A stretch of 60,591 bases of DNA, filler included, from Dugesia japonica (Eukaryota): assembly GCA_001938525.1 (NCBI GenBank). It is 5 parts of 5 records of this genome, joined end to end, with 100 filler letters (N's around TTAATTAATTAA, not from the genome) between each part and the next. Parts side by side here need not be neighbours in the genome. Positions count along the whole stretch, not along the records: positions 28,152 to 36,876 come from MQRL01639137.1; 4 more parts are not named here. The stretch is one strand, 5' to 3'. The translations under genes were made by a program, and so were the position numbers. Shown here piece after piece: positions 3,238 through 55,339 of the stretch. Each line of letters starts with the position of its first letter. The first letter of the stretch is position 1. The notes beneath the pieces were generated by a model that made no database searches, was not told where the DNA came from, and saw nothing but the letters and a program-made list of their open reading frames with translations.

Positions 3238-3280
3238 CTATAATAAATCATGATGTAATTATTGAAATATTATGAATTAC

Positions 3281-12291: not shown

Positions 12292-12885
12292 CTTCCACAT
12301 TATTTACTACCATAAATCTCAAGCCCTCTAAAAAATTAATCAATAACCCAAAAAATCAATAACCTCAAAACACCGTCACATTCTTCAACCTACCCTCTTT
12401 CAAACAAACCAACTCTCATACAAATCGAATAAAATCTCAACATTCTATACCCACTTTTACCCCAAACTCGCGATAACCCATCATTCTGATCTAATGCGCT
12501 CACAATTTTGGAACCCCTTGACCCATTTTCACCCTAANTTACCTTTGGTAACATATACAGAACTTTCAAGAATCAGAACAAATCCATCATCAAACACCCA
12601 AAAATACAAATACACACATACATAATTTTTTAATTGTCTTTCGTTTTTTCAACACACACTCACAAACACCACATCCCCACACAACCTTTACCCAAATATA
12701 CTCTCTCAAAACCCATCCCCAATACCCACAATACACGAAAAAATATTTCCCGCCAAAATTTTTAAAATAATTCAAAATAAATTAAACAAAATTTTAAATT
12801 CCCACAAAAATCACATTTGAATTTTAAACCACTCAAAAAAAAATTTCAATTTTGATCCGATCAAATATCCGATCAATACATCGAC
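12292..12885 (-). repeat. Right arm of the inverted repeat (partner 9365-9790)
   Basis: Reverse complement of 9365-9790, with an extra ~145-bp segment. Confidence 0.9.
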
Positions 12886-12899
12886 CTATTAGGGAGTAG

Positions 12900-13410
12900 A
12901 AGAATTTGTAATTTGACACTTAGCATTGAAGTTCTATTAAAATAAAAGGTAGAGAACTTCAATGCATATTTAATATGTTTGGATGAAAGTACTGTTATGT
13001 CAGACAATACACAGTTAGCTTTTTTTGTTCGTGTAGTTGACAAAATTTTCCACATTAAAGAAGAGCTGGTAAAGTTAGCCAGCATGAAGAGAACCACAAC
13101 TGGAAAAGATATTTTTAATGAAGTTAAAAATGCTTTGACCTTTTTAAAATAACTGGAATCACAACAGATAGACTTCTTGAAATGGTTGGAACAAGCAATG
13201 AGCTCATTGGCTCTATGCAGACAGAGCTGGGAAAATTATCGAAGTCTACACAGTTTAATTCATTACTCTAAATTATACATCATGAACATTTATATGATAA
13301 ACAGTTGACTATGGATCATGTGATATTGGTTGTTTTTAACATTGTCGATTTTATCAGAGCTCATGGATTAAATTATAGGCACTTCAAAAAATTTCTTGAA
13401 GTTATGGAAG
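12900..13410 (+). mobile_element. hAT (Charlie/GTF2IRD2-like) transposase central fragment
   Basis: LICLDESTVMSDNTQLAFFVR..EELVKLASMKRTTTGKDIF..GITTD..IIHHEHL..VDFIRAHGLNYRHFKKFL. Confidence 0.85.
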
Positions 13411-16658: not shown

Positions 16659-16850
16659 ATTTCATTAAAATAAGAAAAGGCTTCGATCATAATAAAATTT
16701 ATTTGTAAATAAATTTTTTTATACAATATAAATTTTTTTTTACAAATAAATTTTATTTTGATCGAAGCCTTTTCTTATGTTAATGAAATCTGAAATGCGA
16801 TCAATGGTTAAGTCCAACAATTATTCTCACAATAATTGTAATTATAAAAT
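16659..16850. repeat. Palindrome (~60-bp arms) followed by the ATGGTTAAGTCCAACAATTATTCTC repeat-family motif
   Basis: ATTTCATTAAAATAAGAAAAGGCTTCGATCA...TGATCGAAGCCTTTTCTTATGTTAATGAAAT; variants of the downstream motif at ~6275, ~35386 and ~48369. Confidence 0.8.
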
Positions 16851-19989: not shown

Positions 19990-21690
19990 ATCAACATTTG
20001 ACATTCTGTATAAAGCTGTAGTTCAACATGATATCTAAGAGAATTCCTTAATATCAAATAAAAACTTGAATGGTTTCACTTCATCTCAAAAAGTTTCAAA
20101 ACAATTTTTCATTACTTTGTTAGCACATACAAACATTTTATTAAATACTTTCTTCTTATATTTCATTTTTGTGCTCAATGAGTCTTCTTCCACCATTTTT
20201 CCTTGTCGCCTACCAATTGAATCAATTGGAAAACAATTGTATACATCCAGAATATAAGCAAGTTTCTATTCTTGAACAATTATTGAATCAAATTTATTCT
20301 GATTACAATTTTTCTGTAAAGAGAACCATAGTTATTGTTAGAGATAATAAAGCTTGTTCCTATATTAATAGAAACTGATTGAAGTTATTTATGGGAAATA
20401 TTAATTTCAAATAATATGTCACACCAAATCATAATTAAACACAAGAAATCAGAATTTGTAATTTTTGATGCAATTGATTCTGCAGTAATTTTTGCAAGTG
20501 CATTGTAGATTAATTTAGCTACATAATGTAGTGCTTAATAAACCTTTGGTAATTCCAAACCAAATGTGACTTTCTCATTATGTATAACTTAGGNATTTAT
20601 TTGTTAAAAATGAAAACTTTGCTTGCAAGATTCTCTACCTTTCGGTTGACGTAGGGAAGAATTTCTTAACTTGATCAATGATATTACAAAACTTGGCAAT
20701 CTTGTGTGAACACTTCACTAAATCAATCACGACTAAGTTCAAAGTGTGTCTACAGCATGGAATACAAAAAGCACGAGACATTTTTTGAAAATACGAGCTT
20801 GAACACCATTTCTAACATCTTTTATATTCGCGTCGTTATCATAACTCTGGCCTCTTCTGCTTTCAATTGAAACATTGTTAGATTCTAATGAATCAAAGAT
20901 TACCTTCGTTAATTCAGTTGAACTTTTAATCAAGTAAAAGCCAAAAAANAACTGTCATTAATTTGAATATTTTAATTATTTTCCACGTTTACATATCGAA
21001 TTATCATTGACATTTGATCATTGTGGCTGATATAGTGTGCAATTGACTATCAACGAAAAGTACACCGATTATTGCACTTTCTCCGAAATTTTATTTTGGA
21101 TGTCTTTTCCTACATAATGAACGGAATAAAATTTTTCCTTAGCTCTGACCAAATGTTTTTCTCTAACCGATTCAAATTCAGCCAAAATGTCTAAGAATTT
21201 CAAAATATTTCGATTATTGTTTTGGTAAACTTTATCAGAAGATCCCCTAAATAACAGATTTTGTTACCCTATCAAATTAGTCTTCTCAACACATTGGCCC
21301 AATATTAAATTTTTTTCTTCAATTTTTTTTCTTTGATGGCATTTACTGACTCTCTTACGTAATCTCTTCATTAATTCTATACAGTTGTTGAAGCATTCAA
21401 AATTTTCGGTACTTCACTCGNNNNNNNNNNNNNNNNNNNNNNNNNNNNNNNNNNNNNNNNNNNNNNNNNNNNNNNNNNNNNNNNNNNNNNAATTTTGTTT
21501 TGAATAAACTAATCCTGACACGAAAATTCGTTTAACATTATCCATAATTCGTTGAAATAATAATTATTTTAATACTTAAATTTTCGTATATTGATTCAAT
21601 TTATCTTTGAAAACGTTTGGTCCTTCATTAATTGCTTTTTGAATATTGTCTTTGCCAAAAGCATCTAGCTATTCACTTATATCAGTTAAT
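19990..21690 (-). mobile_element. hAT (ZMYM1/DUF4371-like) transposase pseudogene
   Basis: RGQSYDNDANIKDVRNGVQARI, HTLNL, and DQMSMIIRYV motifs; multiple stops and frameshifts. Confidence 0.85.
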
Positions 21691-26059: not shown

Positions 26060-27605
26060 TACAAAAAGGATTTAGTTTAGATATGCTTTATGAGTTTTGA
26101 TATTTNCAAATTCCTTAATAATATTAGAATAGTCTAAAGTCTTATCAATTTCTTGGTTTATATGAAGGGTTGCTAATCCGTTTAGTCTCTACTAATGCAT
26201 AGTTAACCTTAGAAAGTTTTAAATTCTTTTAAAAGTATTGAAAGATTTTTCTCCCTCTGCTACTGTCACTGGAAATGTCAAACAAATTCAAAATAAAATT
26301 GTTTTATTTGCCCAAACACTTAAGAGCCTCTTTTTGATCCTTTCTTTGAGCAATTCTGGCGGCTTGGCGATTAATTTCAAATTGGCGCTATAAATTCGCA
26401 TTAAAAAGATTATTTCTTCAAATATTTCCTAATTAATTTCATTTTCTATTTTTTAAATTACAGTTCTGTTTTCGAAGTTAAATTTTCTTCATCTATTTCA
26501 TTTAATTTCCGTAAAANTTCAAAAAAAAGAGCAATTTGAAGAAATGGCTTGAATTTGACGATGCTGTACAAACGGTATTGTTTAGGAAATGATTTTATTC
26601 AAAAGATCCAACTTAAAATGTTCTTTGGCGAATTATTGATCATTAAATCTATGATCTATTTCAAATTCAGTGGTGATTTTGTTTTCAATTGTTACTTGTC
26701 TGAACTTTTAAGAACTAACTGGTTTACTGCATTTAATCTAACAGACCATCATGTTTTTGAAATGTTATGTATTGAATATCCTGATAAATGCTTCTTTAAA
26801 ATTTCCCATCTTTATTGAGCTACCACTAATTAAATTATAAATTTCATGAATTATGCCAAAGAAAGAAGTTATTGTTTCCTGATAGCATTCCGCGGAATCA
26901 ACTGCTACTAAATTTAAGGTGTGATTGCTACAATAAAAGAATGTGAATCTGCTATTTTCCCGCAAAATAACCGCATCATTATATATACCAACCATGTTGG
27001 CTCAATTATCGTAACCTTATCCCACACAATTTTTGAAGTTTAATTTACTTTTCGAAGCAAAGCTAAACATCGAGTAGCCATTTCTTGACCTGTTTTATCA
27101 GAAAAATTATCAAAGCATATAAAATCTTTCTTCAATTGAAAACTTCAACTCACTAAATTTGATATAAAGAATAATTACTGTTTGCTCCTTATGAGATCAG
27201 TCTAAAATTGCATCAGCAATAATGGAAAAATATTTACTTTTCTTCACTTTAATAATAATTGTACGTTGGAAAAATGAACCTCATATATTGATAAATTTGT
27301 TTTGTATTCTAGTCGAAAGATAATTGACTTGCAATCTTTACTTTTCTTCATGCAAAGATCTAAGTTTTGAAATATGTTATGGAAATATTAAATCATACTT
27401 ACTCAATTATTCAATTTTACCTAGAAAATTCCCGTTATGTAGACTTTCAATCCGTTCACCATTTCTAAAAGAATGCCAAGCCTTTTTCAAAAAAGAAAAA
27501 ATATCACATCTAGATATCGTTCTAATAGCCTTTTTGAAACGTTGGTGTGCTTATTATTCTTATCCGAAGGTAAATTTTCCATTCTTTTATCTTGATGATA
27601 CTTCT
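26060..27605 (-). mobile_element. hAT (ZMYM1-like) transposase pseudogene, second family
   Basis: KYFSIIADAILD, GYDN*ANMVG, YCSNHTLNLVAVDSAE, and the C-terminal FPVTVAEGEKSF..RLNGLATLHI dimerization motif. Confidence 0.85.
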
Positions 27606-27716
27606 TAAAACAATACAAATCTACACATAACCTCTTACAAATTAAAAATTTAACCCGTTAAAATTGTAGCTCTTGAATTATTTAACAAGTATTGAGTAAC
27701 ATTATATATATAAATA

Positions 27717-28051
27717 CAGGGTGTTCAAAAAGTATTTAGACAATTTCAAAAATTTATTAATGTTGGAAATATGCCTGAAAACTCTTTAAATATATTGTGT
27801 AATAAACATTGAATAATAAAGTTTTTAGTCCATTTAAAATAAAATTTCTAAATGTTCCCCATTTGTTGCTCGAAGGATATCTAAGCAATAAGCAAAAATA
27901 ATTGAAAAAAAAATAAAAATTTTAAAAAAAATATTTCAAATATTCAAAAAAAATATAAGAAATTTTATTTTAAATAATCTAAAAACTTTATTAATCAATG
28001 TTTATTACACGATATTTTTCAAGAGTTTTCTAGTATATTTCCAATCTTAAT
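27717..28051. mobile_element. Tc1/mariner-type MITE, right end cut off by the linker
   Basis: Starts TA-CAGGGTGTTCAAAAAG; 27757-27850 is inverted relative to 27960-28051. Confidence 0.7.
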
Positions 28052-28151
28052 NNNNNNNNNNNNNNNNNNNNNNNNNNNNNNNNNNNNNNNNNNNNTTAAT
28101 TAATTAANNNNNNNNNNNNNNNNNNNNNNNNNNNNNNNNNNNNNNNNNNNN
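28052..28151. other. Artificial assembly linker N44-TTAATTAATTAA-N44
   Basis: Same 100-bp structure as 13644-13743. Confidence 0.95.
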
Positions 28152-28186
28152 AAATTATAATAGTTATAATAATCATTTTATTATCG

Positions 28187-28236
<50 letters not shown>

Positions 28237-28275
28237 ATTAATAATAATAATAATAATATTAAAATCTAACTTTGA

Positions 28276-28875
28276 TACAATTTCAAAAAATCTTTTCGCT
28301 TTAAAAGTTGACTTATCCATAGTAAATTTATTTAATTCAAAATTGTCTATGTCACTCGGTTTCTGGTGCCCCCCACATTCAATTAAATACAATTGATCTG
28401 ATTTTACTCCAATTTGATAAGAAATAGCCGCTTTAGTGAGCACAATTGTTTCATTTTCAGAAGGTATTTTCATAGGATAAAAACTATTTTGGTGTTTCAC
28501 ATCAATATAGGTGTACTGTTCTTTACTAAATAGTACATTAATTACAGAAATTCAGTTAGTCTTACTAATCATCAGCACTTTCTTCTGCATATATTTCACA
28601 TGGAGATGTTATAAAAAAATTTTCTATGAAACTAAATAGGAAATAAAAATTTTTTGATACGTTTTTTAAACACTTACGTTTTTATCAAATTTTCTCCATT
28701 GTCATTAATATCAGTAATGGAATCAATGTATAATTTAATAGCATAAAGTCTAAGGAAATCGCATCAAAATTATTACAGAATTTATTTAGTAAAAACTAAC
28801 ATAATATTTCTAACAGACTCAATAATTTCGCAGAAAATGCTCTCAGAATTTATATAATTAAATATTGAAATATGC
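28276..28875 (-). CDS. Unidentified host gene, exons 28875-28801, 28749-28678, 28631-28566, 28525-~28276
   Basis: GT-AG phase-2 introns of 51, 46 and 40 nt splice to an open frame HISIFNYINSESIFCEIIESVRNIILYAIKLYIDSITDINDNGENLIKTFIENFFITSPCEIYAEESADDYKEQYTYIDVKHQNSFYP...; last donor uncertain. Confidence 0.75.
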
Positions 28876-29194
28876 CTTTAAAAAAATTAATAATATTTTA
28901 ATAATTCAATTAATTAATAAAATTAGGTTGAAATTATGAAAAGATAAAGTTAAGAATCAAGGAATATATTAAATAATCAGTACTTTTAATTAATAATTAG
29001 GTTAGTAAAAATAGAATGTTGGCTTTTAAATTATTTACTGTTTCATATTTGTTTCATATTTGTTTTAAATATTTTAATATTCAATATCATATTTGATATA
29101 ATTTTAAATCGTTATTTCGGCTCAATATTTTGATTTATATATTATTAAATAACGTTTTATTTTTGATAATTAATCAACGATAAAAATTAAAAAA

Positions 29195-29459
29195 AACCCG
29201 GGCAATTTTTTGTATGAGTATTAAAGAGGTCGAAAAGCATCAGAGACAGATCACAATGTTAATAAAGCATTTGGCCAGAAAACTGCTAACGAAGATTCAG
29301 AACAACGGTGGCTTACACGGTTTAGACATGGAGGCGAGAGCTTTGAAGAGGAACAGCACGGTAGCTGACCATTAGTGGTTAAAAACGACAAGTTAAAACC
29401 ATAATTGGAAGCAAATTGTAGCTCAAAAATCATATAGCTTGTAGAAGAATTAGGCATAA
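29195..29459 (+). mobile_element. Mariner transposase N-terminal HTH fragment
   Basis: LYEY*RGRKASETDHNVNKAFGQKTANEDSEQRWLTRFRHGGESFEEEQHGS*P...LVEELGI (Mos1/SETMAR-type HTH). Confidence 0.85.
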
Positions 29460-30713
29460 GACTTGCGCACTGGATCTCCTCTCCCCTGCCAACGTAGTTA
29501 TCTAGAGATTTCAGTGATCTAGAAATATAGGAATTTGATTGGTCGTTACCATTACTTAAAAAGATCTCGTTTTGGAATTTATTGGTCGAAAATTTGCTTC
29601 GAGAGTTTGAATTTCAAAATTCTGGTTTGTATTTTTTTGGAAAATGTTTCTCGTATGGTTTCGAATTTGGTATTGTTGAACTCAGAATTAAAATCCGAAC
29701 ATTTTCTACGTAGAGTTTGCTATATCAATAATTTTAGTTTCCAAGATAATATTAGGTGCGCACTGGATTACTTGAACTTTGTTTTAGACTTTTCTCAGCT
29801 AATATTGGTTGCATGGCTTTGAATTTGGTACAATTAGACTCAGAACAAAACTTTACAGATGTATTGTTTAAAGGATTTATGCTTGGTTGAGGAAATTATA
29901 AATATAATTATATAGTTAATTATAAATTATAAATTTTGTTTTTAATTTTCTTTAAGTATTGTGGTATTGGTGCAAAGTAGTCTTGTCTGTTATTGTGTGT
30001 GGAAACTGCAGGTGCACATTTTGCAGTGTGTAAGAAAATGTTACAAATACCACCACTATGGAACCTTTGATAATAAATTATGACAGATTGTTATAAATTT
30101 TAACATCTATATGGAAATTATACCGTCGCTATGTCAGTTATTATAGTACATTTTATTATGATATTAAAATTATTATAAAAACATATACATTTTATGAAAG
30201 CCAATGTAATTTATTGACTCTGTTTAACCTATATGGCCTTTTTATAAATGGTTCATCTCTAATTACAGTTTCGCTGTATNCCTTATTTGGTCTAATTGTC
30301 TTAAATGAAGTAATTATTGATTGCATTTTGGTTAATTGTATTAATAAAGATAAGTGTATTGATTTATTATGTCTATTAGCTTATCATGTGCATATATGTA
30401 ATGTTCTGAATGCACAATATTTAATGTAATTAATAAGAGTTTTCTATGGTCTTCATAGTTCTTATAGGTTATGTAAATATCTTTTCATAAGTAAATATTT
30501 TTTNNNNNNNNNNNNNNNNNNNNNNNNNNNNNNNNNNNNNNNNNNNNNNNNNNAATAAGAGTTTTCTATGGTCTTCATAGTTCTTATAGGTTATGTAAAT
30601 ATCTTTTCATAAGTAAATATTTTTTTATAAAGAAATTTTTAAATTTTTGTTTTTTGTGAAAATTACACTTTGTGTAATTATTCACTTTTTCAAAATTTTT
30701 AATCATTGTTACG

Positions 30714-30805
30714 AAAACAGCTCAGAATGTATTAGCTAATAGTGGAAAAATACTACCAGCATTAAAATCCAATGAATTAGCTGAACTTGGAAATGCTTAG
30801 TGGAG
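30714..30805 (+). pseudogene. C-terminal piece of a Polinton protein-X-like core protein
   Basis: KTAQNVLANSGKILPALKSNELAEL aligns with KTVDDVVSKRQSFKDLIKNQAMNLL of the 51305-51580 ORF; same position upstream of MCP. Confidence 0.45.
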
Positions 30806-31010
30806 NNNNNNNNNNNNNNNNNNNNNNNNNNNNNNNNNNNNNNNNNNNNNNNNNNNNNNNNNNNNNNNNNNNNNNNNNNNNNNNNNNNNNNNNNNNNNNN
30901 NNNNNNNNNNNNNNNNNNNNNNNNNNNNNNNNNNNNNNNNNNNNNNNNNNNNNNNNNNNNNNNNNNNNNNNNNNNNNNNNNNNNNNNNNNNNNNNNNNNN
31001 NNNNNNNNNN

Positions 31011-32190
31011 NATATATTTTTGATCGTCTATCTACAAAAGCTGTTGTTGAATTTAGTAAATTAGAAAATCTGTTTCCAATAAATTTAATTTCTGAATCAC
31101 AAAGCGATGTAGAGTTTTTTTATAAATGTATCTCAAACGGAATATTTGGATTTGAATGATACTTTATTGTATATTAGAGGGAAGGCTGTTGATAAGGATG
31201 GTAAAGATAGGGCTGACACTCCTTATGCGGTTCTTAGTAACTATATGTTGCATATACGTTTTAAGGATGTAATTCTTTTGTTTAATAATTTTAAAATTGA
31301 AGGTGGAAATGAATATTATCTTCACAAAGCATTNATTGCAACTATTATAAATCATAATGGTAATAGTAAGAATATTTGTCTTACAACAATGGGAATAGAT
31401 CAGAAGCAGATAGAAAAAAGTCTATTCGAATATCTAAAACCTTATTTCTATGCAGTTCATTACAACTCCATTTCGTGGATCAACCGAAATATCTTATTCC
31501 ATGTGTTATTGTTCACATTCGATTGAAAATAGCATCTCTTAAATTTTGTTTGGAATCTGCAGCTAATGAACCTACATATGTATTACTAGATGTAAAAGTA
31601 ATGGTAGGACGTGTACGCGTCGAACCTTAAATATTGGTTGCTCATCAAGTTGGGCTATAAAAGCAACATTTCTTTTCCCAATAAGAACCAAAAAAGGTGT
31701 TGCATTTACAATTAGCAAAGATAGTTCATCGTTTTGTAAGGTACAAATCTTTGGTGATCGTGGCTTACATAATTTTANTCTAGTTGCATTTCAAAATGGA
31801 GATCAATATAACTGTAGTTATAAAAGCTCAAAGGTTATAACATCTAAACGTTGCTTAGGTTTTTTAACGAAAAATACAGATTCTCGAGAAATTTATACTC
31901 AAGATCTTAAAAACGATAACTATAGTACAACATATATGCAATATGTAATTAGAAATATGGATATTTGGATAAGAATTTGAATTTTGGAAAAATAATTGAA
32001 GATTTTAAGGAAAATTATCGATTCTTTATATTTGTTCTTTCTCAATATTTTGATATAAATCAAAGTCAATTGCCTAAACAAGGAAATTCGATATAAGATA
32101 TAAAGTTTGATAAAGCAATAATATCCCCGGCATATGTTATAATTCATGGAGTATTTTATAATTTATTGGGGAACAGTATCAGTATAAACA
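31011..32190 (+). pseudogene. Polinton major capsid protein (double jelly-roll), copy 1
   Basis: IFDRLSTKAVVE..LFPIN..DVEFF../EYLDLNDTLLYIRGKAVDKDG..NYMLH..FKDV..DQPKYLIPCVIVHIRL..RVRVEP..EDFKENY..QGNS..DIKFDKA; frameshifts and stops. Confidence 0.88.
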
Positions 32191-32249
32191 ATGCTATGTA
32201 TTCTAGAAACAATCGCAATGAAGTAAGCGTTGTTATATTATTTATTGTT

Positions 32250-32564
32250 TAATTTATTAGTTCTATTCGGATTGATCGAATTACANCAAAGTGGCTTGGA
32301 ACATCACGGCAAGATTTCCATGCATTAGATAAGCTTTTAAATTATATTCCAGTAAATAAAGCCTTAATCATGGAGACATATATATCAAATCTAAGTGGAT
32401 AACATTAAATAGCTGCTTACATTAAACCAGAAAACATATTAGTATTTGATCCATTAGCATTTCCTTATTTATCAATGTTGGTGTCATATTTATCAACATT
32501 TTCAAAACAAATAGAGTACAATAGTATTCGATTTCAAGATTCATTTACAATAACTTGTGGTTAA
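32250..32564 (+). pseudogene. Polinton adenain-like cysteine protease
   Basis: NLSG*H*IAAYIKPENILVFDPLAFPY...IEYNSIRFQDSFTITCG*, matching the adenain signature GxHW / FDxxG / Q..CG. Confidence 0.8.
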
Positions 32565-32909
32565 AAAAGCAACTTCGTAGTTTAAAAAATTTAGTTCCAT
32601 AATTTTGTTGTATAAAAATATATATATTTATATAGGATGGTTGATGTATTATTTAATAATTATACAGAAAAAGTGGCAAGCAAACAATTTTATATATTGT
32701 TTAATTCGTTGTTATAATAAATAATTGGCAGTAAATTAATATCTGGAAATTTATTATATAAATAATATTAATCAATATAATTTAAATTTACATTTAACAG
32801 TATAATTTAATAAATTTCTATGCCATTTGAATGTACAAAATTTAGGATGTCTGAGATATTTTTAAATAGTTTTATAGAAAAGTGATAAGTATACAATTAT
32901 ATTAGTCTA

Positions 32910-33145
32910 TAACCTTTAAAGTCACAAGGTTTGAACCCCTATAATATTAAATTGATTGGTTTGCAATCATTACCAATTGTAGTAAATATAAAAGTTGCGA
33001 TAAATTTGTATAAATTAACAAATAAAAGTAGTCACCTGTTGGTTCGAACCAGAGTTATTTTGTCATTAGGACTGGTAAAGTATGATCCTATGTGAGCAAT
33101 TATGTTCTGAGCATGAAAAATAGAACCATTTAGACATAGACTTTG
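32910..33145 (+). pseudogene. TBP-fold protein pseudogene, copy A (C-terminal repeat)
   Basis: NPYNIKLIGLQSLPIVVNIKVAINLYKLTNK/VTCWFEPELF/LSLGLVKYDPM*AIMF; FEPELF corresponds to TBP YEPELFPGL. Confidence 0.7.
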
Positions 33146-33348
33146 ACTTTTCAGTCATACAACCCATAAATTTATAAACCCTATACACTCATAAACTTTA
33201 TTTGCTCATAAAACCCATTAATCTATATTAAACTAATTAATTTCATCAAATGATTCATCAATTTCAATAAAATTTACATAATTTGTTTTAACGGATCAAT
33301 TAAATTACTACCAACTAAACCCAAATGATCCACTGACATTCATTAATT

Positions 33349-33954
33349 ATGATAACCAATATTAATTACAGAGGTGTAATGTCGCAAGAAGTAACAAATA
33401 ATAAGAGCTATCTTATAAACAATGCCAATTTAAAGTTAAAAGTGTCAATTATGCAATTACTGTACAATTTTGAATGCCTGAAATCTAGGACTGTTGATAT
33501 ATTATTAAACAATTATAAAGAAAAAATATCACGTATATAATTTTGAATGTCTGAAATTTAGGATGGTTGATGTATTATTTAATAATTACACAGAAAAAGT
33601 GACAAGTAAACAATTTTATTCTTTAGAGCAGGAAAATGTAGAATAATGAGGGTGTAAGAAACCATTGTAACAGTTTAATTTAAACCTCTATGATATTAAA
33701 AATATACGATTACAATCGCTAAAATTTTAGTAAATATGGAAGTTCAAATTAATTTACACAAATTAGCAAAAATATTCAATTGCTGATTTGATTCAGGGTT
33801 ATTTCCAGCTTTAAGACTTGTAAAATATGACCATTTATGTGTAAATATGTTTTCAATAGGAAAACTAGTAATACTGAGACTTTAAAATTAGAATTTTCAA
33901 GGATATGTTGATAACATTACATCATATTTATTCAATTTGATCGAAAAAATTTAA
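33349..33954 (+). pseudogene. TBP-fold protein pseudogene, copy B (both repeats)
   Basis: MITNINYRGVM...TILFFRAGKCRIM/GCKKP...IKNIRLQSL/ILVNMEVQINLHKLAKIFNC*FDSGLFPALRLVKYDHLCVNMFSIGKLVIL vs TBP IQNIV / ALIFSSGKMVCTGAK / YEPELFPGL..LLIFVSGKIVLTG. Confidence 0.75.
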
Positions 33955-34099
33955 GAAATACGCAACAATGATGCAAAACAAATACATTTCGAGTACAAAT
34001 AATATCAATTAAAATTTATATACATAATTTTTCAAATAATTAGATATTGTATAGTAATATTGCATTACATTATTATTTTCTTTTGAATTAATTATAAAA

Positions 34100-34610
34100 T
34101 TGTCTCAAAATTTAAATCACGAAGAAAAGGCAACAGTTAGTGAAGAAGCAGGATTTAATGACGAAGAAGTTATACAGAAAAAAGTAATTATTAAAGAAGA
34201 ACAATTATTTATTTACGAGAAAAGATGGTTTTATTTTATCATTAAAATTGTTTTATTGTTTTTATATTTAGATCTACTTAAGAGGATCTTTGAAAATATT
34301 TTTCCCACAATAAAAGTGGCATCAAAGGAATGGCCACGTTATCAATATTGGGAGAAGATCAAATGATGCAGAGATATTTGGAAGAACTCTCAGGAGGAAA
34401 ATAAAATGCTTAGAGAGATTAATAAAACTTAATAAGAAGAAGATCCGAAACTTATAATCATATGAATGGAAAAACCTGGCCCTTTTTAGGACTATAAATC
34501 TTGATTTTTAAATGTTTTTAAAAGAAAATATTGATTTACTTAAATGGTTTTTAACATAATCAACTTGTGAATGTAAAAACCGACCATGTTTAGGGATAAG
34601 TAGTGTTGAT
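34100..34610 (+). pseudogene. Unidentified degenerate ORF inside the Polinton-like element, possible short intron at ~34228-34271
   Basis: Acidic N-terminus, GT..TTTAG intron-like stretch, then DLLKRIFENIFPTIK..W..YQYWEKIK and a C-terminal CECKNRPC. Confidence 0.25.
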
Positions 34611-36379
34611 TGAGAAAGTAAAATTTGTTGCTTTTTATAGAAATTTAATAATAAAGTTGTTGCTTTCTATAAATGTCGTGTTTTGCCTTTTATAAAGCTG
34701 TTTTTTTAATAAAAATTTGTTAAAAATCTAACTAATGAAAAGTTATAACTTCAAAATTAAAAATGTTTTAAAAGTAAAAATTTATTTAACTAAAAATTGC
34801 TTGTTAAAAAAATATTTACTTATGAAAAGATATTTACATAACCTATAAGAACTATGAAGACCATAGAAAACTCTTATTAAATACATTAAATATTGTGGAT
34901 TCAGAACATTACATATATATATATATATAGCACATGATAAGCTAATTGGCATAATAAATCTATACACTTATCTTTATTAATACAATTAACCAAAATGCAA
35001 TCAATAATTATTTCATTTAAGACAATTAGACCAAATAAGGCATATAGCGAAACTGTAATTAGAGATGAACCATTTATAAAAAAGGTAATGTAAGTTAAAC
35101 AAAGTTAATAAATTACATTGTATTTAATATTTTATCATGAAAAATTAAATAATAAAAAAATAAGTTAACAAATAAAAAACACATATTTGATTGAATTTCA
35201 TTAAAAATCAATTAAGAAGTTTTCCTTTCTTTTCATTAAAATAAAGTAAAAGCTTCGATCAAAATAAATAAAGTTTTTAGATATTCAAATTTTCGACATT
35301 TTTCTTCTTCATTTGAATAGCTATAAAAACAATTTAGTTTAATCGAATTAATTACTTTATTTTAATGAAATCTCAAATGCGATCAATGGTTAATTCCAAC
35401 AATTATTCTCACAATAATTGTAATTGTAATTATAAAACTTCTTTTCTTATTGAATAAATTGTATTAAAAAATATGTTTTTATTGAAAAACCCTTGTTCAT
35501 TTATTTTTAATTTAACTAATAAAAAAGATCCAATACAAATTAATAACAATATTTAGTATAATTCGTTGTTATAATAAATAATTGACTGGAAATTTATTAT
35601 ATAAATAATATTAATTGAACAATTTTAAAAACAATTTTACTATATGGTTTGCACAAAATAACCGAGAATATNNNNNNNNNNNNNNNNNNNNNNNNNNNNN
35701 NNNNNNNNNNNNNNNNNNNNNNNNNNNNNNNNNNNNNNNNNNNNNNNNNNNNNNNNNNNNNNNNNNNNNNNNNNNNNNNNNNNNNNNNNNNNNNNNNNNN
35801 NNNNNNNNNNNNNNNNNNNNNNNNNNNNNNNNNNNNTAGAAGAAAATCATTTTGATCTTTGCATTTAAAAATAAATTTTAAATTAAAAATTGGTTTTTTC
35901 AAAATATTCATTTATAAATATAACAATTTATTGTTTTATTAAAATTAAGCTTCGATCAAATTTGTGCTTGGTTTTGAGATTAATTCTAATTTTCGAATTT
36001 GTCTTCGTCAGGAATTGACGTTTTTTGTAAATATAATTTATGTAAATATAAAATATTTAAAATGATGTAAATATTTAATTTACTTTTTTAAACCTTTAAA
36101 TATATTTAAAATAAACTCTTTTAAAATTTAATATTGATTATTTATATTTGCTGACAACTTAATCCTTATTATTTTTAATTGAATTTACATCAAAGAAAAA
36201 TATTTAAAGAGAAACTGTAAGTTGATAAACCATTAAGAATAATTTTAATTATATAAAATTTCAAATTATTCATTTAATTTAAATTTAACAAAGTCTTACA
36301 AAGGCACAAGAAAGAAATTTTCAAAATCGTCTATTCTACATAAATGATTAATGAAAAAGAGCAAAAAATGTATTATTAC

Positions 36380-36807
36380 TCAACATTATATTTATCCAAT
36401 AATATAGACAGGTGAGACTCGCATAGATCTAAAATTCTATCACTGAAATTCATACAAAACAAATATTTGGAATCCTTGAATGATTTGGGTATATTTGACA
36501 AATTTTGATTTAATTCGGAATCGTTATGCACATTTGTTGCTATAAGTTCTCTAGAAAATACAAATTCTTGAATATAATACATTTACAATTTACCCTATAT
36601 TTCTAATCTCCTTTCTTACATCATCAGTCATTTCAAAATCATAGTCATTAATCCAGATTTTCCTTTTAAAATTTATTAAGGAAATCTACTTACAAAAATC
36701 TGTTCTTGAAAACTTACCAATCAAATCTTCGATAATAAAGATCACTCAAATAGTGGTCATGAGCTTTGCAACATTCTTCATAAGTTACAGGTTCATTATA
36801 TGACCAA
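36380..36807 (-). CDS. Unidentified host gene, upstream exons 36807-36718, 36662-36594, 36550-36380 (splices to 28875)
   Basis: Phase-2 GT-AG introns give WSYNEPVTYEECCKAHDHYLSDLYYRRFDW/KIWINDYDFEMTDDVRKEIRNIG/ELIATNVH...LLDKYNVE; final GA|G join is in frame with exon 28875. Confidence 0.7.
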
Positions 36808-36876
36808 CTGAAAAGAAATATTACTGTTTTCTTAATGATTTTTTTAATGATTTAATTGAAATATTATGTTCTTTTT

Positions 36877-36976
36877 NNNNNNNNNNNNNNNNNNNNNNNN
36901 NNNNNNNNNNNNNNNNNNNNTTAATTAATTAANNNNNNNNNNNNNNNNNNNNNNNNNNNNNNNNNNNNNNNNNNNN
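36877..36976. other. Artificial assembly linker N44-TTAATTAATTAA-N44
   Basis: Same 100-bp structure. Confidence 0.95.
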
Positions 36977-37608
36977 GGGAGAAATAATCATTTGTTTATA
37001 TAAGTTTATTATGAAGGTCACTGAAAGCTTGAAAGTTGTTGACAAGTTTAAAAATTGTTGACATAATTATTGGACAGCAAAAATGAATAAAATTAAATAA
37101 AATATTTCTTATGAATTTTAACTTGCGTCACTATATACTGAACTTTGAACATGTGTCACGGGTCAACTCTGAAAATCAAATGAAATTTGATAAGTTTTAA
37201 TATAAAATCACTATAAATTATTTTAGTTTAACAGTAATAATAAATCAATAGAATCTAAGATTTCGAAAGATTAAAACAAGAAAAAGTAACAATTTGATTC
37301 TATCAACTTGAGTGAAAACAAATATGTAAATTTAAATAAGCATACGTGAACATAATTGAAAATGTTTAATAAATCTTAAATAATTGCATTTTATTGTGAG
37401 AAAAACAAAATTAAAAAACAATAATTGTGNTTATTTGGCGAAAGAAATACAGGATTATTCGAATTTACATTGTCGTTTATTTCTGATTATATTCTTATTA
37501 AATAAAGTTTCTGCAGAAAAGATTCATATAAAGGAGCCCCAAAAGGAAGTAGTGAGAAAAAAAATTATTAATTCAGAAAAATTTGTGAACAATAACTAAT
37601 TTCACTAA

Positions 37609-37856: not shown

Positions 37857-39069
37857 CTAGAAGAAAAATTATTTGAAGGAAATTTAAACACTTTTGCTAA
37901 TTTATTTAATAATTATTATTAGGTAAATCTTACAAAAATAATTTATTTTTGAAATGACAACTAATAATTTGAGACGTATTTTTATTCACATATAAATAAT
38001 AAAATAAACATATGGCAATTAAACTAATTTTCAATTAGAAATTACTTTTATCATTTTCTATTTGTTGAATTGCTTCATAATTATTTATTTCTTTACATCC
38101 CCTTTTTTAAGAAACTTTCTAAGTTATCCACATTTCTCTCCAATCGCTTTCCGTTTTCAAAATCACATTTCGTGAATTTTCTCAAATTTTCGATAAGGAT
38201 CTTCAAATCTATCTTCACTTTTATTTCTTGTTTCTAACTTGATAAGGACATAAACTTCTACGTTGAATTGTCTTTTAATATATACTACTGGAATGTATTC
38301 TTTAGTTCTCTTTAAAGCACCCGACTTATACCACTTTTCTCTGCTGATTTCACACAATATTCAGTTTAAATAATAATATTCAAAGTTCAATGATCACAAT
38401 GATGTAATATTAGTTAGAATATTGATTTTGGATTGCAGATTGAATATGGATTTTTGGATTGTAGGTTGAATGCTGGTTGAATATTGATTTGTATATGTTT
38501 GTACATTCTGTTTGTATACAGGTGTATGTGTACGTGTGTATTTAAGGTTGGTTTTCCCCAACACATTAATAATAGTTACAGGGTTATTCATTTTTATCTT
38601 AACCATTATTCATTTTAATTTTAACCATTATTCATTTTTATATTATCATTGACCAAAATTTTTTACGTTGAATAAAATATATTTATGTAAAATAAAACTG
38701 TCATTAATAATAATTACTCAATTATATAAAAACTCAATTAATATTAAAAAATTCATCATCAAAATATTTCATTTTCTCAATTTCTTTGTCATATTTTCCA
38801 CTATTTCTTAATAATGTTTTCTGTTCATTTATCATAATTTTCTTTATATTCATCATCATAATTCATTTTCTTCATTATTTTCATAATTTTCTTCAGCATT
38901 CTTTGCTTCATTCTTTTAAATAAAATTTCATTTGAAATAATATTTGTAATAAAAAATCACTTCTTTTCTGTTTGGTTTTCAAAATCACATTTACAAAATA
39001 ATTGGAATATTTAAAAAATCCTTTAATAACAGTTTTTTTAAACATATATATTTTTACAATTGCAATAAG

Positions 39070-39221
39070 CTTCGATCAAAATTTGTTCTTTTGATTTTTG
39101 ATAATAATTCTATATTTCGACTTTGTCTTCGTCAGAAATTGACATTTTATCAATTCTGGCGAAGACAAAGTCGAAATATAGAATTATTATCAAAAACCAA
39201 AAGAACAAATTTTGATCGAAG
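39070..39221. repeat. Palindrome with ~72-bp arms, Penelope pseudo-LTR-like
   Basis: 39070-39142 is nearly the exact reverse complement of 39150-39221; single-arm homolog at 35948-36019. Confidence 0.85.
39106..39140 (-). ncRNA. Minimal type-I hammerhead ribozyme motif (Penelope type)
   Basis: AAUUU CUGACGA A GAC-AAA-GUC GAAA UA UA GAAUU: conserved core, 3-bp stem II, 5-bp stem I, loopless palindromic helix III. Confidence 0.6.
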
Positions 39222-40945
39222 GTTTTATTTTAAATAAAATATATATTGTTTTAATTTGTAAAATAATTAATAGAACTACTATATTAATTAATGATAATTT
39301 TCTATAAATTTTAATAAATTTGCTGTTTTAGAATTCTCAATGATTTAATTTATTTAAAAACTTAATAAATTTTAATTAATAAGAAATTAAAACACACGAA
39401 TTAAAATTAATGTATTGAATTTATAAGATGAATTTAAAATGTTTATATGTTGATTCTAAATTTTACTTTGATTGAATAAAATTTCTTTGAAAATTTAATG
39501 AATTAATTGATATGAAATGTTAATAATAGGTTCATGAATAATTAGAATTTCAATGATTGAATAAATTTATATTCCAAAGAGATGATTAATTGTATAATAA
39601 AGCACATTGGAAGGTCTATTTTCAAAGGAATTTTACGTGAATAATTAACTGGTTTATTTGCTGTAAAGTATAGATTAATGGTGAATTGTATGAATTATAG
39701 AGCTGAATACATAGGAAATAATGATTCTAATACTATCAAGATTTATAACCCACTAATTCACTCATATAATTACTTATTTAAACATATTGATTTCAAATGT
39801 CAATATTCCCCTGTTCGCAACTAGATGTGAATTAAATATTTTAATTAATTTGATTTAATAAAAACGGATTATATTGANNNNNNNNNNNNNNNNNNNNNNN
39901 NNNNNNNNNNNNNNNNNNNNNNNNNNNNNNNNNNNNNNNNNTGTACTAAACGGATGTAATGTATTGGCATGGAAAGAAAACAAACTATTATTGAAAAAAA
40001 TGTATGAAAATAATTAACTAATAATTTATTAGTTACTATTTATTTAATAATTTATAACATTTATTCTTTATTTTTATTTTATAACAATTATTGTTAAAAT
40101 TCTATGGGGAGCAACTAATGTTAAAATTTAAATTTGACCATTTCCAAGGAAAATTCCGTAGCAAATAGACTATCACTAGTAAATTCCTTAGCAAATTGAC
40201 CAAAAATGGAATCGATTTGATCTCCACGAGTAATTATTCAACTAAAATCAATGAAACTGATCGAATAGGCTAAAATAAGTAATAATTGTTCCTAATTAAN
40301 TATAATCAACCTCAGCGATTAAATTTTCAATCGAAATTAAAGTCATTTTAAAATATAAAATTTTATTAACAATAATTAATTAAGGTGAACTAATTTTAAT
40401 GTACCCGGGAGCGACTTATATTATTATTATATGAAATTAATTAATTTTAATGGAATTGTTCTCTATGGATTGATTGATTGATCCATTAACGCAAAATAAA
40501 AAGTCTAAAAATTATCACCAACTAAATATCGTGAGAATTATCATCAAACAAGTTTAAAATTATTGCCAATTAAAAAGCCTAAAAATTATCATCACCTGAA
40601 AAGTTTTGAAAAAGTTAACCAGATAACTAACAAACGAAACAGACAGTTCGATCAGATTTTTATTAAATAAATTTTTAGTTTTATATTAGTTTTATATTAG
40701 TTATATTAGTTTTATATCTTATTATTAAGTTTTATACTTTGTTTTTAATTATTTTATGTTACTTGGGGTAAACTCCAAATTAAGTACATTTTTATTAATA
40801 TAACTTTGTATGTATAAGACTTGTTTATTTTTTAACAGTGTTATTCGTAATGAGCAAATACTTTCCAATCTGATTACTTATAATTTTCGATAAAGTTTGG
40901 GTTACTTTTGATTTTTTCATAAAAGTTGGAAATCCGGAGGATAGC

Positions 40946-41834: not shown

Positions 41835-43430
41835 ATATCTAACACCCCCAGCTTCGTAATCTTTTCAAACATCTGATTTTTAGCCACTCAATCCTTCGTG
41901 ATTTATTGATTCAATAATAATTTGAAAGCACTTGATGTGGACTTATAAACTTTAATATTTTAAAAGGATCTTAATATTTGTATCTATTTTGCTTTAAATT
42001 GTGAGGTTCCACTTTTACTAGAACTTCTTAACAAAATTCCAATATATTATTTTATCTGATTCATATTCATTTAGTTTTTGTGCACTATTTTAAATTTTTT
42101 ATCAACTAATTCTCTAACTTCACCACTACTTGNNNNNNNNNNNNNNNNNNNTCCATGAAGTATAGTTTTTCTTCCATAAATTATTTCAAACGGTGATACT
42201 CCAGCCGCTTTTTGTTGGGTTGCATTAATCAAAAATTGAATTCAAGGTAATAAAACTTATCTATCCACTTTTTATTGTAGTAACAATCATATCTCTTAGG
42301 GTCGGGATCGTTCTTTCTGCCAACCTGTTTGATTGATGTTGGTATGGAGACGAAAATTCTTGTGTAATTCCAAATTTCTGAGTCATTCCTTTCATCAATT
42401 GCCCTTCAAATATTTTGCCTCTATCTATCAGTATGGATTTGGGTTTGCTGAAAATATATACAATTCTCTTTTATTGATTCAACTACAGATTTTTCGTCTT
42501 GTTTTGTCAGGCTGACAGGCTAACAAATTTGCTGTATCCATCTATCATAACTAAAACATATTTCTCTTTAATTTTGATTCATCAAAATGAGCTATATCAA
42601 TGACAATCTGTTCTAACGCTCCAAATTCTGTTCGAGGTAGTAAAATTCTTTTGTTTTGCCAGTATATGTTTTTCGTTTATTGAAAATTAAGAATTTTTAA
42701 AACTCATGTTCAATCGTGCTGAATATATCTGGGCAAAATTAAGTTTGAATATTTTCAGTTAATTTCTTCGTTCCCAATTGACATAATTCTTCATGAATGT
42801 ACTTTATTAAATCAACCACTGATTTACCGGCTAAAACAATNNNNNNNNNNNNNNNNNNNNNNNNNNNNNNNNNNNNNNNNNNNCATAACGAATTCATCAA
42901 TATCTCTAAAGTATTGACTTTTATTTAAATTTTTACTAACTTGGAAACTATTTATCATTAATATATTTAATTATTTTTTTGGTAATTTGATCATTACTTG
43001 GAATTTTTATGATACTCTCTTTATCATAATTAGAGCTTTCTGCAATATTTATTCTTCTATGTCTAGATTTTTTATGTTATTTTTATATTATTTCTTTTTG
43101 CATCTAGATGAGTCATCAGACATTAAGTGCATAAACTTTCTCCTATTCTTGAAAATCCACCAGCATTCCCATGATCAATNCCTTTAAAAAATTGAAGATC
43201 AAAATCAAATTCTGCTAGGTTTGTAATCCACGCCTAGAACTGTGAACTAATTGGCTTAATTGTTTTCTTCCTAAACACTAATGCCTTATGATCGGTTCTG
43301 GCTATAAACCTTTATCCTTAAAGATAATGCTTGAAATGAATCATAAATTTGTGTAAACGTTCTTTATTATTAGTTCTTTCCTGGTTACACAATAACCCTT
43401 TCTAAAATCATCCAAAAACGAGATGCATAA
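41835..43430 (-). mobile_element. Ty3/gypsy pol pseudogene (RNase H, integrase) with polypurine tract and 3' LTR start
   Basis: IAYASR..TRKE, RTDHKAL, EQIVIDIAH, ILIDRGKIF, SPYQHQSNRLAERTI, SPFEIIYGR; GAAGCTGGGGG-TGTTAGA at ~41845. Confidence 0.9.
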
Positions 43431-50722: not shown

Positions 50723-51304
50723 CCTTACTTGTTAATTTTTTTTCACCTTAATATAAACAGTAAACANNNNNNNNNNNNNNNNNNNNNNNNNNNNNNTGCT
50801 GTCAATTTTCATACATTAAATTAGAAAATTGATTTTAATATTTTTATTATTTTTTTAATTGCAGGAATTGAGTTTTTACGCATTTTGCATGAAATTATAT
50901 AATATTAATAATGTACTTGTCAAGTTATACATGAATTTTCAAACTTTTAAGTTTTTAATAGACAGCAAATAAAAGAAATATTTTATTTCAACGATGACAA
51001 ATATTGTACACATAGTTTTAAACATTTTTTATAAGCACANNNNNNNNNNNNNNNNNNNNNNNNNNNNNNNNNNNNNNNNNNNNNNNNNNNNNNNNTTATA
51101 ATTGACTAATCGAAGACTCGGGAAAAAGTGTTTGAGAGTGTTGATTTTCTTTCTATTTACATGATCAAGTACATAAACAATTAGTAGTTAGGAATTGCTT
51201 GCAAGTCATTGAGAATATGAGTTGGATCGAATTTGCAGTAACCATCAATCCATTCCACTGCTATGCTGTCCTCCAACAACTTCCTTTATTGCATTAATGG
51301 TATT

Positions 51305-51580
51305 TCACTTCACATCCAGCAACAAATTCATTGCTTGGTTTTTGATTAAATCCTTAAATGACTGCCTTTTGCTTACAACATCATCAACAGTTTTTAGTGC
51401 TGCTCGCTCCACTGACTTCGCAATTGGAAGTCCAAATTTCTGCAAAATTGGAATTGCAAAACGTCCAATTCTATGCAGCCAATTTCCACCGCCTTGCTGT
51501 TGTTGACTACCGATAAAATAGAGTAAGTCTCCACCCATTTGTGGAAGACTATACATTGCGGTAATAGCTCGATCAACCAT
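51305..51580 (-). CDS. Polinton/adintovirus protein-X-like core protein (stop likely premature)
   Basis: QMGG...FIGSQQQQGGGNWLHRIGRFAIPILQKFG: Gly-rich adenain-site-like motifs followed by an amphipathic helix; lies directly after the penton. Confidence 0.7.
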   Translation of the reverse strand: MVDRAITAMYSLPQMGGDLLYFIGSQQQQGGGNWLHRIGRFAIPILQKFGLPIAKSVERAALKTVDDVVSKRQSFKDLIKNQAMNLLLDVK

Positions 51581-51612
51581 TTCAATAATGAATAAAATTG
51601 TATTTAAATTGT

Positions 51613-52943
51613 TTATACTTGTCGAAAATGTAGTGTTAAACTTGTTTTTGATCCATATGGGAAATCAATCAATCTTCCCGCATCATAACGTATGTTTACT
51701 TTAATTTTGTTGATTGAAGATGATGATACAGGTAAATACATCGGATTTTCAAGTCTTACGTGAACAACATCACCAAACGAATGCTTGTTACTGTCAACCC
51801 ATATACTCCTCAAAATGACACGCGTACATCACCAACCAGAATTGGATCGACTATTGATGAGTAAATAATATACAGTTGCCTTATACCACCATGTAATAAT
51901 AGTTTATGCAAACCCTTTACTTGTTACGTAGATTTGTAGAATTTTGCAGAAGGAAGACCGAATATTAGCGAAAGACTCTCGTCAAATGATACATATTCAA
52001 CATTATCAAGTAATTTAAACATGACCATTCCAAATGTTGAATTTATAACAAATTCTTTAAATATTTTGTGGCATAATTTTATAAATGATGTAACCAGATT
52101 ATCCAGATCGGTAACCATTATATCACTTTCAAATTCAAAATAATTTATTTCTGTTTTTATTTCAGTAAATATTAATTTAACATCAGTTTTAGTAATATTA
52201 TCCAACATTTTGGTATCTGATTCGATAAATGAGTCCATTGGTTTGTTCTTTGTATTTTGAGAAATAAACCCCAGTAACCGAGCATCAAACAATGAATTAA
52301 ACTCCAATTCCATATAGCAATCAGATTTGATAATTATTTTCTTTTGACTATTAATTCTGATTTTACAATTCTTTTTATTTTTCAATCCAGAAACAACAGG
52401 CTTTCTATTTTTAATCTCAACATTTAAATTTTCTTCAATTTCTTTTATTNNNNNNTTTCCTTCCTCGATAGCATTAAACTTTAATTTTAAAGATATTGAT
52501 GGAATATTTTCCAGAATCAACTACTCATCAGATTCAATAACTGAATCTGACGGCTTCTTATTTTTGGTATTGATTAAATTGAATCCGAAATTTTTTGCAT
52601 CTGATAACGATTTAAACTCCATTTTTACTTGGCAATCTGTTTTTAATATTAATTTCGTTTCATCGGAAAATATAAACCAGTTATATTTATTGGAAGGGAT
52701 GGTATTATTAAGTTTAAGACTACCATTTACAATACTTAATTGGAATTTATCTTCAATTTCCATCACTTCTCTTATTTTATATTCAATTTTTGAACCTTTC
52801 CGTATAGTCTGTGGACAATAATTAAAAACAAATTCTGTCATGGCAACTTCCCCATGGTCATCTTTTAAATTGATGGCATTCTCATAGTCGACCAAAAACT
52901 TGCTCGCATTATTATCAGGTCGAGTTCTTGGACTACTATTGCT
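51613..52943 (-). pseudogene. Polinton penton (minor capsid protein) with a large, internally duplicated insertion
   Basis: N-terminal SNSSPRTRPDNNASKFLVDYENAINL..EVAMTEF; C-terminal YSSIVDPILVGD..LRSIWV..NPMYLPV..IDFPYGSKTSLTLHFR; in-frame stop at 52521 and further disruption near 51880-51925. Confidence 0.88.
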
Positions 52944-52946
52944 TTA

Positions 52947-53322
52947 CAGGGGCGCGTGTATCACAGTTTGAGAACCACTTTATCATATTATAGAATTAAA
53001 AAGTCAAGAAAGATAATTGACATAATTACTTTGGACATTTCATTTTAATTTATGTTGTAAAATAAAAAACTAAATCCAAAAGAAATAATATAAAGGATCG
53101 AATTAGATTTTACATGTTTGTATTGAAGTTTAAAAGAAATAGCCTTTATAAGAAAATAAGTTTAAATAAATACTCTTCGTACGATTATTTACAACAGTTA
53201 TTATATTTTAAAATTGTGTAGTTTTGATATAAAAACGTTTTCTATTTAATTTTTTTTAAAATTTTCCAATAAGGTCCGTGGGCCACACAAAGAAGTTTTG
53301 CGGGTCGCGAATTTGACACCCT
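52947..53322. mobile_element. hAT/Charlie-type end remnants truncating the penton 5' end
   Basis: CAGGGG start at 52947, AGTTTGAGAACCACT at ~52965 and TTTGACACCC at ~53311 (reverse complements of typical Charlie TIRs). Confidence 0.45.
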
Positions 53323-54910: not shown

Positions 54911-55324
54911 GAAGATTGATTGATTTTCCATGTGGATAAAAAACAAGTTTAACTCTACATTTTCGAAAAGTATAAAAGTTTTTATTTCAATTTGATTGAT
55001 TATTGAAATAGTTGATCGAGCTATTATTGCAATGTATGGTCGACCAAAAATGAGTTGAGACTTGAACGTTTTGCAATTCCAATTTTGCAGAAATTTAGAC
55101 TTTCAATTGCAAATTCAGTGGGGCGAGCAGCACTAAAAACTGTTGATGATGTCATAAGCAAGAAGCAGTCATTTAAACAATCAATCAAAAACCAAGCAAT
55201 GAATATGTTGCCGGAAGTGGAGAAAAATGCACTTAATACATTAAAGGAAGTTTTTGGTGGACAGCATGGTAGTGGAATACATGAGCGGAAAAAAAAAATA
55301 ACATCAACTATGAACAAAAGATGA
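54911..55324 (+). pseudogene. Second Polinton copy: penton C-terminal tip plus protein-X-like gene
   Basis: RLIDFPCG*KTSLTLHFRKV* followed by RFAIPILQKFRLSIANSVGRAALKTVDDV; inverted homolog of 51250-51677. Confidence 0.85.
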
Positions 55325-55339
55325 CGATTAGAAGAAACC

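Follow-up and report, generated by a model that had tools for sequence, protein, structure and literature searches.

Does a unit of about 5 kb in the genome of Dugesia japonica, in which Polinton (Maverick) genes lie between inverted repeats inside a host intron, represent a small mobile element with terminal inverted repeats (TIRs) of its own, or is it what is left of a larger one? The DNA analysed here (referred to as the window) is a stretch of 60,591 nt from assembly GCA_001938525.1, in which positions 28,152-36,876 come from record MQRL01639137.1. A first-pass annotation had proposed that the unit is a mini-Polinton, bounded by TIRs of ~300 bp and retaining only the pX, major capsid protein (MCP), protease and TBP-like genes. 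The reading that we favour, at somewhat better than even odds, is that the unit is a dead, locally reshuffled Polinton remnant, and that its arms are a low-copy inverted duplication.

The inverted arms are present as described, and they do bracket the gene block (coordinates of all features are in Table 1). Their alignment of 314 columns contains 288 matches, 13 substitutions in 301 aligned bases (4.3%) and 12 gap columns (arm against arm, blastn E 2e-128). The inner 72 nt are identical, whereas 6 of the 13 substitutions fall in the outer 45 nt, which are 13% divergent as compared to 2.7% for the rest (Fisher p 0.006). A further exact copy of the inner 72 nt, beyond a 50-N gap, is most likely a contig overlap and probably not a true tandem repeat. 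Mavericks typically have TIRs of 46-1,447 bp, AGT-AGT ends (the commonest motif) and TSDs (target-site duplications) of 6 bp (PMC8097293). The arms, however, start with CAATG, not AG, and AG...CT ends (AGTAGT...ACTACT) were not found at their termini. The AGTAGT that had been pointed out at 29976 does exist, but it lies 226 nt outside the left arm, and no ACTACT occurs within 28000-37500. The same motif occurs 14 times in the 60.6-kb window, corresponding to a chance of ~7% in any 300 nt. When 5 left and 20 right ends were compared at lengths of 4-9, no TSD of 5-9 nt was found (just two 4-nt ATTT matches), and the 6-mer preceding AGTAGT did not recur on the same strand within 28000-37500. A longer TIR extending to 29976 was considered and rejected: the region 29900-30201 has no inverted partner in the window to the right of the right arm (from 35121), with 150 of 200 shuffles equally good. 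The frames of the arm and outer tract matched no Pfam family and gave no tblastx match to the 12 related loci described below, and a 25-nt arm motif had no exact match in viral_contigs.

Read depth sets the arms apart from the genes. Depth was obtained from four of the 24 listed runs (DNA runs X1, X2 and X3, and RNA run X19, ~25% of which was read) over 28280-36870 at 85% likeness, using 16 of 30 bins, and is given relative to four host-exon bins. Arm bins were at 1.9-4.2x host-exon depth, alike in X1, X2 and X3, whereas in all three DNA runs the MCP bins (31150-32010) reached 2,181-7,959x and the TBP bins (33733-34019 among them) 2,020-3,085x, although summed contig depth, as the tool itself cautions, is not copy number. 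The pX bin was at 708-752x and the protease 3' bin at 97-161x; the bin of a short interior segment (segment X) was at 4-6x, and the 34020-34593 bins were at 1.6-5.0x. The gene block is part of a repeat family of very high abundance, in contrast to the arms, segment X and the 34058-34806 tract, all of which are rare. The MCP and TBP-like depth suggests that there are thousands of related pieces in the genome. The arms are not the termini of this abundant family, as a depth gap of three orders is hard to reconcile with TIRs. Moreover, very high depth (37,036-67,650) was also seen in the bin that separates the two TBP copies (33159-33445); at 85% likeness, family sequence can therefore be detected even where no gene is recognised, and the same would be expected of a family TIR. 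The arm is equally not an independent high-copy repeat, an outcome which the first-pass annotation had named as fatal to its proposal, as it is low-copy.

The unit is not closed by its arms. A direct copy of segment X lies beyond the right arm, and also beyond a high-copy palindromic repeat; it is one of four local duplications, apart from the arms, in or beside the unit, with divergences of 6.0, 6.2, 19.2 and 29.2%. The proposal that the arms are Polinton TIRs is not supported: neither AG/CT ends nor a TSD was found; the arms are low-copy as against genes at thousands-fold depth; and interior sequence is present past the right arm.

The genes themselves fared better. Every gene that had been named was recovered in some form, in the same order (pX-MCP-protease-TBP) as in intact relatives; however, the MCP, protease and TBP-like genes are all disabled, and pX is truncated. 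For pX, the claim stands for the C-terminal part, the N-terminal part being absent or unrecognisable. Stops interrupt the MCP pseudogene at 31628, 31658 (close to a frame change) and 32094. It is 35-54% identical to its intact relative (L002/L003; E 3e-48 to L002) and groups with L002 in a supported clade of 10 rows (97/96), on a long branch that leaves its position unsure. A structural model of the L002 MCP (pLDDT 84.9) matches the MCPs of iridovirus, PBCV-1 and mavirus at E ~1e-16; by the predicted fold of this relative, the unit MCP, itself read as sequence alone, would belong to the double-jelly-roll capsid family. In the protease, two stops (32400 and 32406) fall, by eye, in a stretch aligned with the presumed catalytic His motif of adenain. 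Pfam left this window copy unmatched and matched a relative (L007) to Peptidase_C5 weakly (E 0.0029). The TBP-like gene is 37% identical to that of L002/L003, and its portion 33592-33933 is recognised by the relatives' profile at E 1e-23 and by Pfam TBP (PF00352) at E 3.5e-4 (20.8 bits vs a cut-off of 22.9). The open frame of unassigned family that had been noted is also present; it had no homologue among 479 candidates at E <=1 and no Pfam family, and its best Atlas similarity (0.86, with low recognition) is a lead at most. The motif TATAAAC precedes the protease (32183) and the deep unnamed stretch (33173), and a third site (33414) is inside the TBP-like gene, as it is in L003, where TATAAAC stands 30-100 nt upstream of most genes (raw counts: 10 sites on the plus strand and 3 on the minus strand).

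The relatives were obtained by a search with a better-kept MCP elsewhere in the window (55332-55997), which gave 9 full-length sequences among 850 candidates; with an alignment of these nine, 81 pattern matches were obtained in metagenomes, of which 12 were confirmed as loci. At least four of the 12 (L003, L005, L007 and L010) have a TBP-like open reading frame (ORF) on the MCP contig, and the other contigs, of 1.0-6.4 kb, may fall short of it, so the unit's gene set is ordinary for the clade. All four TBP-like ORFs tested scored over the Pfam cut-off of 22.9 (32-65 bits). L003 (14.2 kb) also carries an ATPase, an integrase, two minor capsid genes and an ORF of pPolB size (1,298 aa). The names pX, minor capsid and pPolB for the relatives' ORFs are putative, being given on position, size and motifs; Pfam was blank for pX and minor capsid, and matched only endonuclease VII in the pPolB-sized ORF of L003. 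Two relatives also carry genes of other kinds on the minus strand, L003:225-719 and L010:2281-2625, being a gene for a ubiquitin-conjugating enzyme (UQ_con, E 1.7e-12) and one of the RING-finger type.

No ATPase, integrase, pPolB or minor capsid gene was found in the unit by the relatives' profiles, tblastn or Pfam, with the pPolB profile made from a single sequence and the 50-nt and 206-nt N gaps unread, which agrees with the earlier failure to see pPolB, integrase or ATPase motifs there. Likewise, Pfam recognised no Polinton family in six frames of 31013-34850 or in three plus frames of 30560-30806; as Pfam also misses intact MCPs and the L003 pPolB, such blanks carry little weight. The weak matches that it did give (Saf_2TM, Toxin_trans at E 0.059, DUFs) were taken as chance. 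A PDB sequence search returned no match for the MCP P0004 or for the TBP piece, and viral_contigs contained no relative of P0010 or of the MCP alignment. By its MCP and protease, the unit is derived from a Polinton/Maverick. What an autonomous element would carry (pPolB, rve integrase, packaging ATPase, minor capsid and intact, intronless core ORFs) was not found in it, nor were AG...CT termini, a 6-bp TSD or a TIR common to an abundant family, as would mark a non-autonomous one. The earlier alternative of a "deletion derivative or non-autonomous element" thus survives in its first half, as a truncated capsid-module remnant; its second half is not supported, in view of the disabled genes and the missing termini.

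We suggest the following course of events for a dead, reshuffled remnant. A full, TBP-carrying Polinton would have inserted antisense into the host intron and would then have lost its replication, integration and packaging part together with its true ends. Repeated local duplications would have reshuffled what remained, and a single break-repair or template-switch event might have placed an inverted copy of ~300 nt from a rare flanking tract next to the pX break, creating the arms, the inner part of which may have been evened out later by arm-arm exchange. The host would splice out the whole remnant, which presumably does nothing now. The decay of the genes is consistent with this: the MCP and protease contain 6 stops in ~505 codons vs ~2 expected at 2.2% decay (P of >=6, 0.02-0.04), on the assumption that decay began when the arms were identical, while decay of 4-6% fits 6 stops well. 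Also in favour is a second inverted pair in the window (~400 nt, 3.2% divergent; described below), for which the profiles gave no Polinton match. RNA over the unique parts of the unit was near zero in the one RNA run (0 over 30002-30575, <=0.46 over 34307-35167), and other copies account for most of the RNA over the genes, as 95 of 100 matched reads continue into unlike sequence.

Several observations weigh against this reading. The excess of stops is modest, and one stop may be a frame overhang, in which case P of >=5 is 0.05-0.075; under both models, homogenisation would lower the apparent age of the arms, which blurs any dating; and the depth argument is subject to the caveat on summed contig depth. 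The inner end of the arm lies within ~60 nt of the start of pX homology, and a profile search detected no pX or minor-capsid sequence on the right flank; to account for this, a simple staggered-break inversion would have to be joined by a further deletion. Immediately inside the arms, the bins show weak similarity (3 of 200 shuffles), and the inverted repeat may therefore once have been longer. AGTAGT heads the left outer tract. Finally, in X1, X2 and X3 a variant contig (depth 13-20) links a right-type arm with the left outer tract (up to 30181); the repeated unit thus continues leftward, exceeds the arm in length and has at least one further version, as would a TIR.

The last points lead to the alternative that the arms are eroded TIRs of a rare Polinton subfamily, with the left TIR beginning at AGTAGT (29976) and the copy being a dead deletion derivative, which we regard as possible, though doubtful. 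This would require one internal deletion with its ends within the left TIR and halfway through pX, and another that took away the right TIR's outermost 226 nt along with the TSD. Among Maverick ends AGTAGT is the most frequent motif, and the reported TIR range covers an arm of 300-530 nt (PMC8097293). The variant contig is as expected, a depth of ~2-4x is about what the two arms of this locus together with one or two at other sites would give, and the four MCP frame changes fit the arm indel rate (2 indels in ~300 nt; an estimate). On the other hand, the motif has a chance of ~7% of occurring in any 300 nt, it has neither a partner ACTACT nor a TSD, the genes but not the supposed TIR are at thousands-fold depth, segment X lies outside the right arm, and two separate deletions are required.

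It is also conceivable, although unlikely, that a capsid-module-only Polinton derivative (pX-MCP-protease-TBP) was mass-amplified to thousands of copies, moved in trans and far outnumbering pPolB/integrase genes, and that this locus is a damaged member which has lost its true ends or has a rare TIR variant starting from AGTAGT at 29976. The MCP/TBP bins at 2,000-8,000x, and the presence of only capsid-side genes in all three Polinton remnants of the window, are compatible with this. A large excess of capsid-side over polymerase and integrase copies, if it exists, would point to a non-autonomous capsid-module family. We did not find a capsid-plus-TBP non-autonomous Polinton in the literature, as represented mainly by titles and abstract openings, with few subscription journals and no supplements.

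An assembly effect, in which two alleles of one arm were scaffolded around a repeat-rich interior or the interior was placed in the wrong orientation, seems improbable. There are two N gaps inside the unit, no matched contig spans it, contigs break exactly at the 72-nt core identical in both arms, and record 10 of X2 starts in the left flank, crosses the arm and continues in the right interior (30150-30429, then 34880-34500). However, all four junctions (left flank-arm, arm-pX, ORF-arm and arm-right flank) lie inside window contigs, the host exons on either side are in correct order and phase, and an X1 contig ends at the core's inner edge, which is what a fork would produce. X2 record 10 may reflect either graph simplification of two similar arms or a real inversion, and being ambiguous it was also rejected as proof of an inversion. 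Least probable is a mobile family of non-autonomous ~5-kb mini-Polintons with these TIRs and a pX-MCP-protease-TBP module moved by the enzymes of full elements: the block is compact, co-oriented and without pPolB, integrase and ATPase, and polB-less Polinton insertions have been reported (10.1101/2025.02.07.637071), but the arms are rare, termini and TSD are missing, the broken genes give no sign of selection for the module, and in one RNA run there was almost no RNA over the unique parts.

The Polinton-derived unit lies antisense to the host gene within an intron of 7,504 nt, as the first-pass annotation had it. The host DNA appears AT-rich and rich in introns. The seven host exons on either side of the unit all have open frames, each of the six introns is of the GT-AG type, and the six complete exons have lengths divisible by 3, consistent in phase. 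The six introns examined in the gene (28282-36807, minus strand) are all of phase 2. In the oligo-dT RNA run X19, first mates on the plus strand were at 2.8-12.1 over host-exon bins vs <=0.37 on the opposite strand; in most stranded libraries, first mates on the plus strand represent minus-strand RNA. X19 reads end at 28748, adjoining the predicted acceptor at 28750. The host gene is transcribed, with strand-biased RNA on both sides of the big intron. Among the 15 joints listed of 533, there was no read for the 36380-28875 junction of the big intron and no empty-site joint for the unit. A homologue of the host gene was not found among 19 candidates, and a host exon gave 2 repetitive, unrelated-looking matches. 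Rfam gave no match across 28000-37000, and a hairpin at 30656-30685 had a z of -1.94, with 8 of 200 shuffles equally good.

Table 1. Features of the Polinton-derived unit and its surroundings (positions in the window).
Feature	Positions	Strand	Basis and remarks
Host-gene exons downstream of the big intron	28875-28801, 28749-28678, 28631-28566, 28525-28282 and on	-	Exon chain
Host-gene intron	28876..36379	-	7,504 nt, phase 2, GT-AG; exon chain and RNA on either side
Left outer tract	29976..30201	+	AGTAGT at its start; low copy
Left inverted arm	30202..30503	+	Alignment; bins 2.5-4.0x host-exon depth
72-nt copy	30554..30625	+	Exact copy of 30432-30503, beyond 50-N gap
pX-like gene, C-terminal part	30684..30797	+	Profile positions 41-78, E 0.046 (weak); E 0.009 vs L002
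MCP pseudogene	31016..32192	+	Start in 206-N gap; five frame segments (>=4 frame changes)
Adenain-like protease pseudogene	32217..32576	+	Profile E 1.5e-19; stops 32250, 32400, 32406
Segment X, low copy	32582..32810	+	64-nt copy of TBP gene: 32630-32693 vs 33556-33619, 6.2% divergent
Second partial TBP-like copy, older	32925..33122	+	Profile E 2e-6; 29% divergent from main copy
TBP-like pseudogene	33349..33933	+	Interrupted by 73-nt tandem duplication and stops; N-terminal start by eye vs L003, L007
Low-copy tract	34058..34806	+	102-codon open frame (34058-34363); possible 44-nt GT-AG intron by eye; bins 1.6-5.0x
Right inverted arm	34807..35120	-	Alignment; TA-run expansion; bins 1.9-4.2x host-exon depth
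Palindromic repeat, very high copy, resembling a MITE (miniature transposable element with inverted repeats)	35231..35429 (also 16660-16847)		Bin 35168-35454, summed depth ~570,000-630,000
Direct copy of segment X outside right arm	35430..35650	+	Score 152, shuffle maximum 89, 0/200 as high; core 6.0% divergent
Host-gene exons upstream of the big intron	36807-36718, 36662-36594, 36550-36380	-	Exon chain

The window holds two more Polinton remnants, arranged back to back: one at 50992-52961 (minus strand) with minor capsid pieces, pX and an exonuclease-like trace, and the other at 54913-56374 (plus strand) with the end of a minor capsid gene, pX and MCP. Their pX copies, which are 86% identical (13.6% divergent), look like an inverted repeat. 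The MCP of the second remnant is 70% identical to P0004 and ~39% identical to the unit MCP; from these values, at least two Polinton families are present. A second inverted pair of ~400 nt (9387-9790 and 12292-12699; 3.2% divergent), with no Polinton profile match, has a G/T-rich and a C/A-rich arm around 2.5 kb. By eye, similarity resumes at ~9345-9385 and 12845-12885, and the pair may represent an element with long TIRs that carries an insertion. Palindromic or dispersed high-copy MITE-like repeats were also seen at 35837-36024, 39037-39262, 10267-10400 and 29507-29932. Elsewhere in the window there are exons of a P-type copper-transporting ATPase (2755-4750, minus strand; PDB matches to HMA4 and ATP7B-type pumps, E 2e-9), an integrase-like remnant (42264-42608, minus strand), by eye probably of the long terminal repeat retroelement type, and hAT-type transposase-like remnants, also by eye, at 20388-21413 and 26291-27657 (minus strand) and 12900-13400.

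For the field, the locus itself matters little, since most Maverick loci are fossils in decay and TBP-like genes are nothing unusual in this clade. It does carry a caution: inverted repeats of 300 nt around Polinton genes should not be taken as TIRs unless ends, TSD and copy number agree.

Polintons/Mavericks are abundant in planarians (PMC8532177, 10.64898/2025.12.11.693146, cited as context), and a Polinton measures 15-25 kb (PMC6431247). Among animal Polintons/Mavericks (adintoviruses), the nearest relative of the unit, L002/L003, has the same pX-MCP-protease order. A TBP-like gene stands near pX-MCP-protease in L005, L007 and L010, as in the unit, whereas in L003 it is on the other side; published figure legends mention TBP-like genes for adintovirus-like elements (PMC8502044, 10.1101/697771). 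L003 differs from the unit in having a pPolB-sized ORF, an integrase, an ATPase, two minor capsid genes and intact frames, while the unit lacks these and its genes are broken or truncated. In this it resembles the vertebrate Maverick fossils, which have stops, frameshifts and lost core genes and in which neither termini nor a TSD can be recognised; 96% of the 3,511 vertebrate loci are degraded, and 2,166 are without discernible TIRs (PMC8097293). Unlike that survey, with at most 287 copies, MCP/TBP sequence related to the unit is at thousands-fold depth, although depth of short matches is not an element count. Butterfly polintons include polB-less insertions and gene-bearing TIRs (10.1101/2025.02.07.637071). 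Both these and the unit are derivatives without polB; however, the butterfly cases are presence-absence insertions with large cargo or with 2-kb TIRs holding hexon and adenain, whereas the arms of the unit hold no known gene. Staggered breaks have been described as giving rise to inverted duplications at the breakpoints of rearrangements (PMC1885836). As in those cases, non-repetitive sequence at the unit is duplicated in inverted orientation on either side of an interior segment; unlike in them, an inversion at the unit would be hypothetical.

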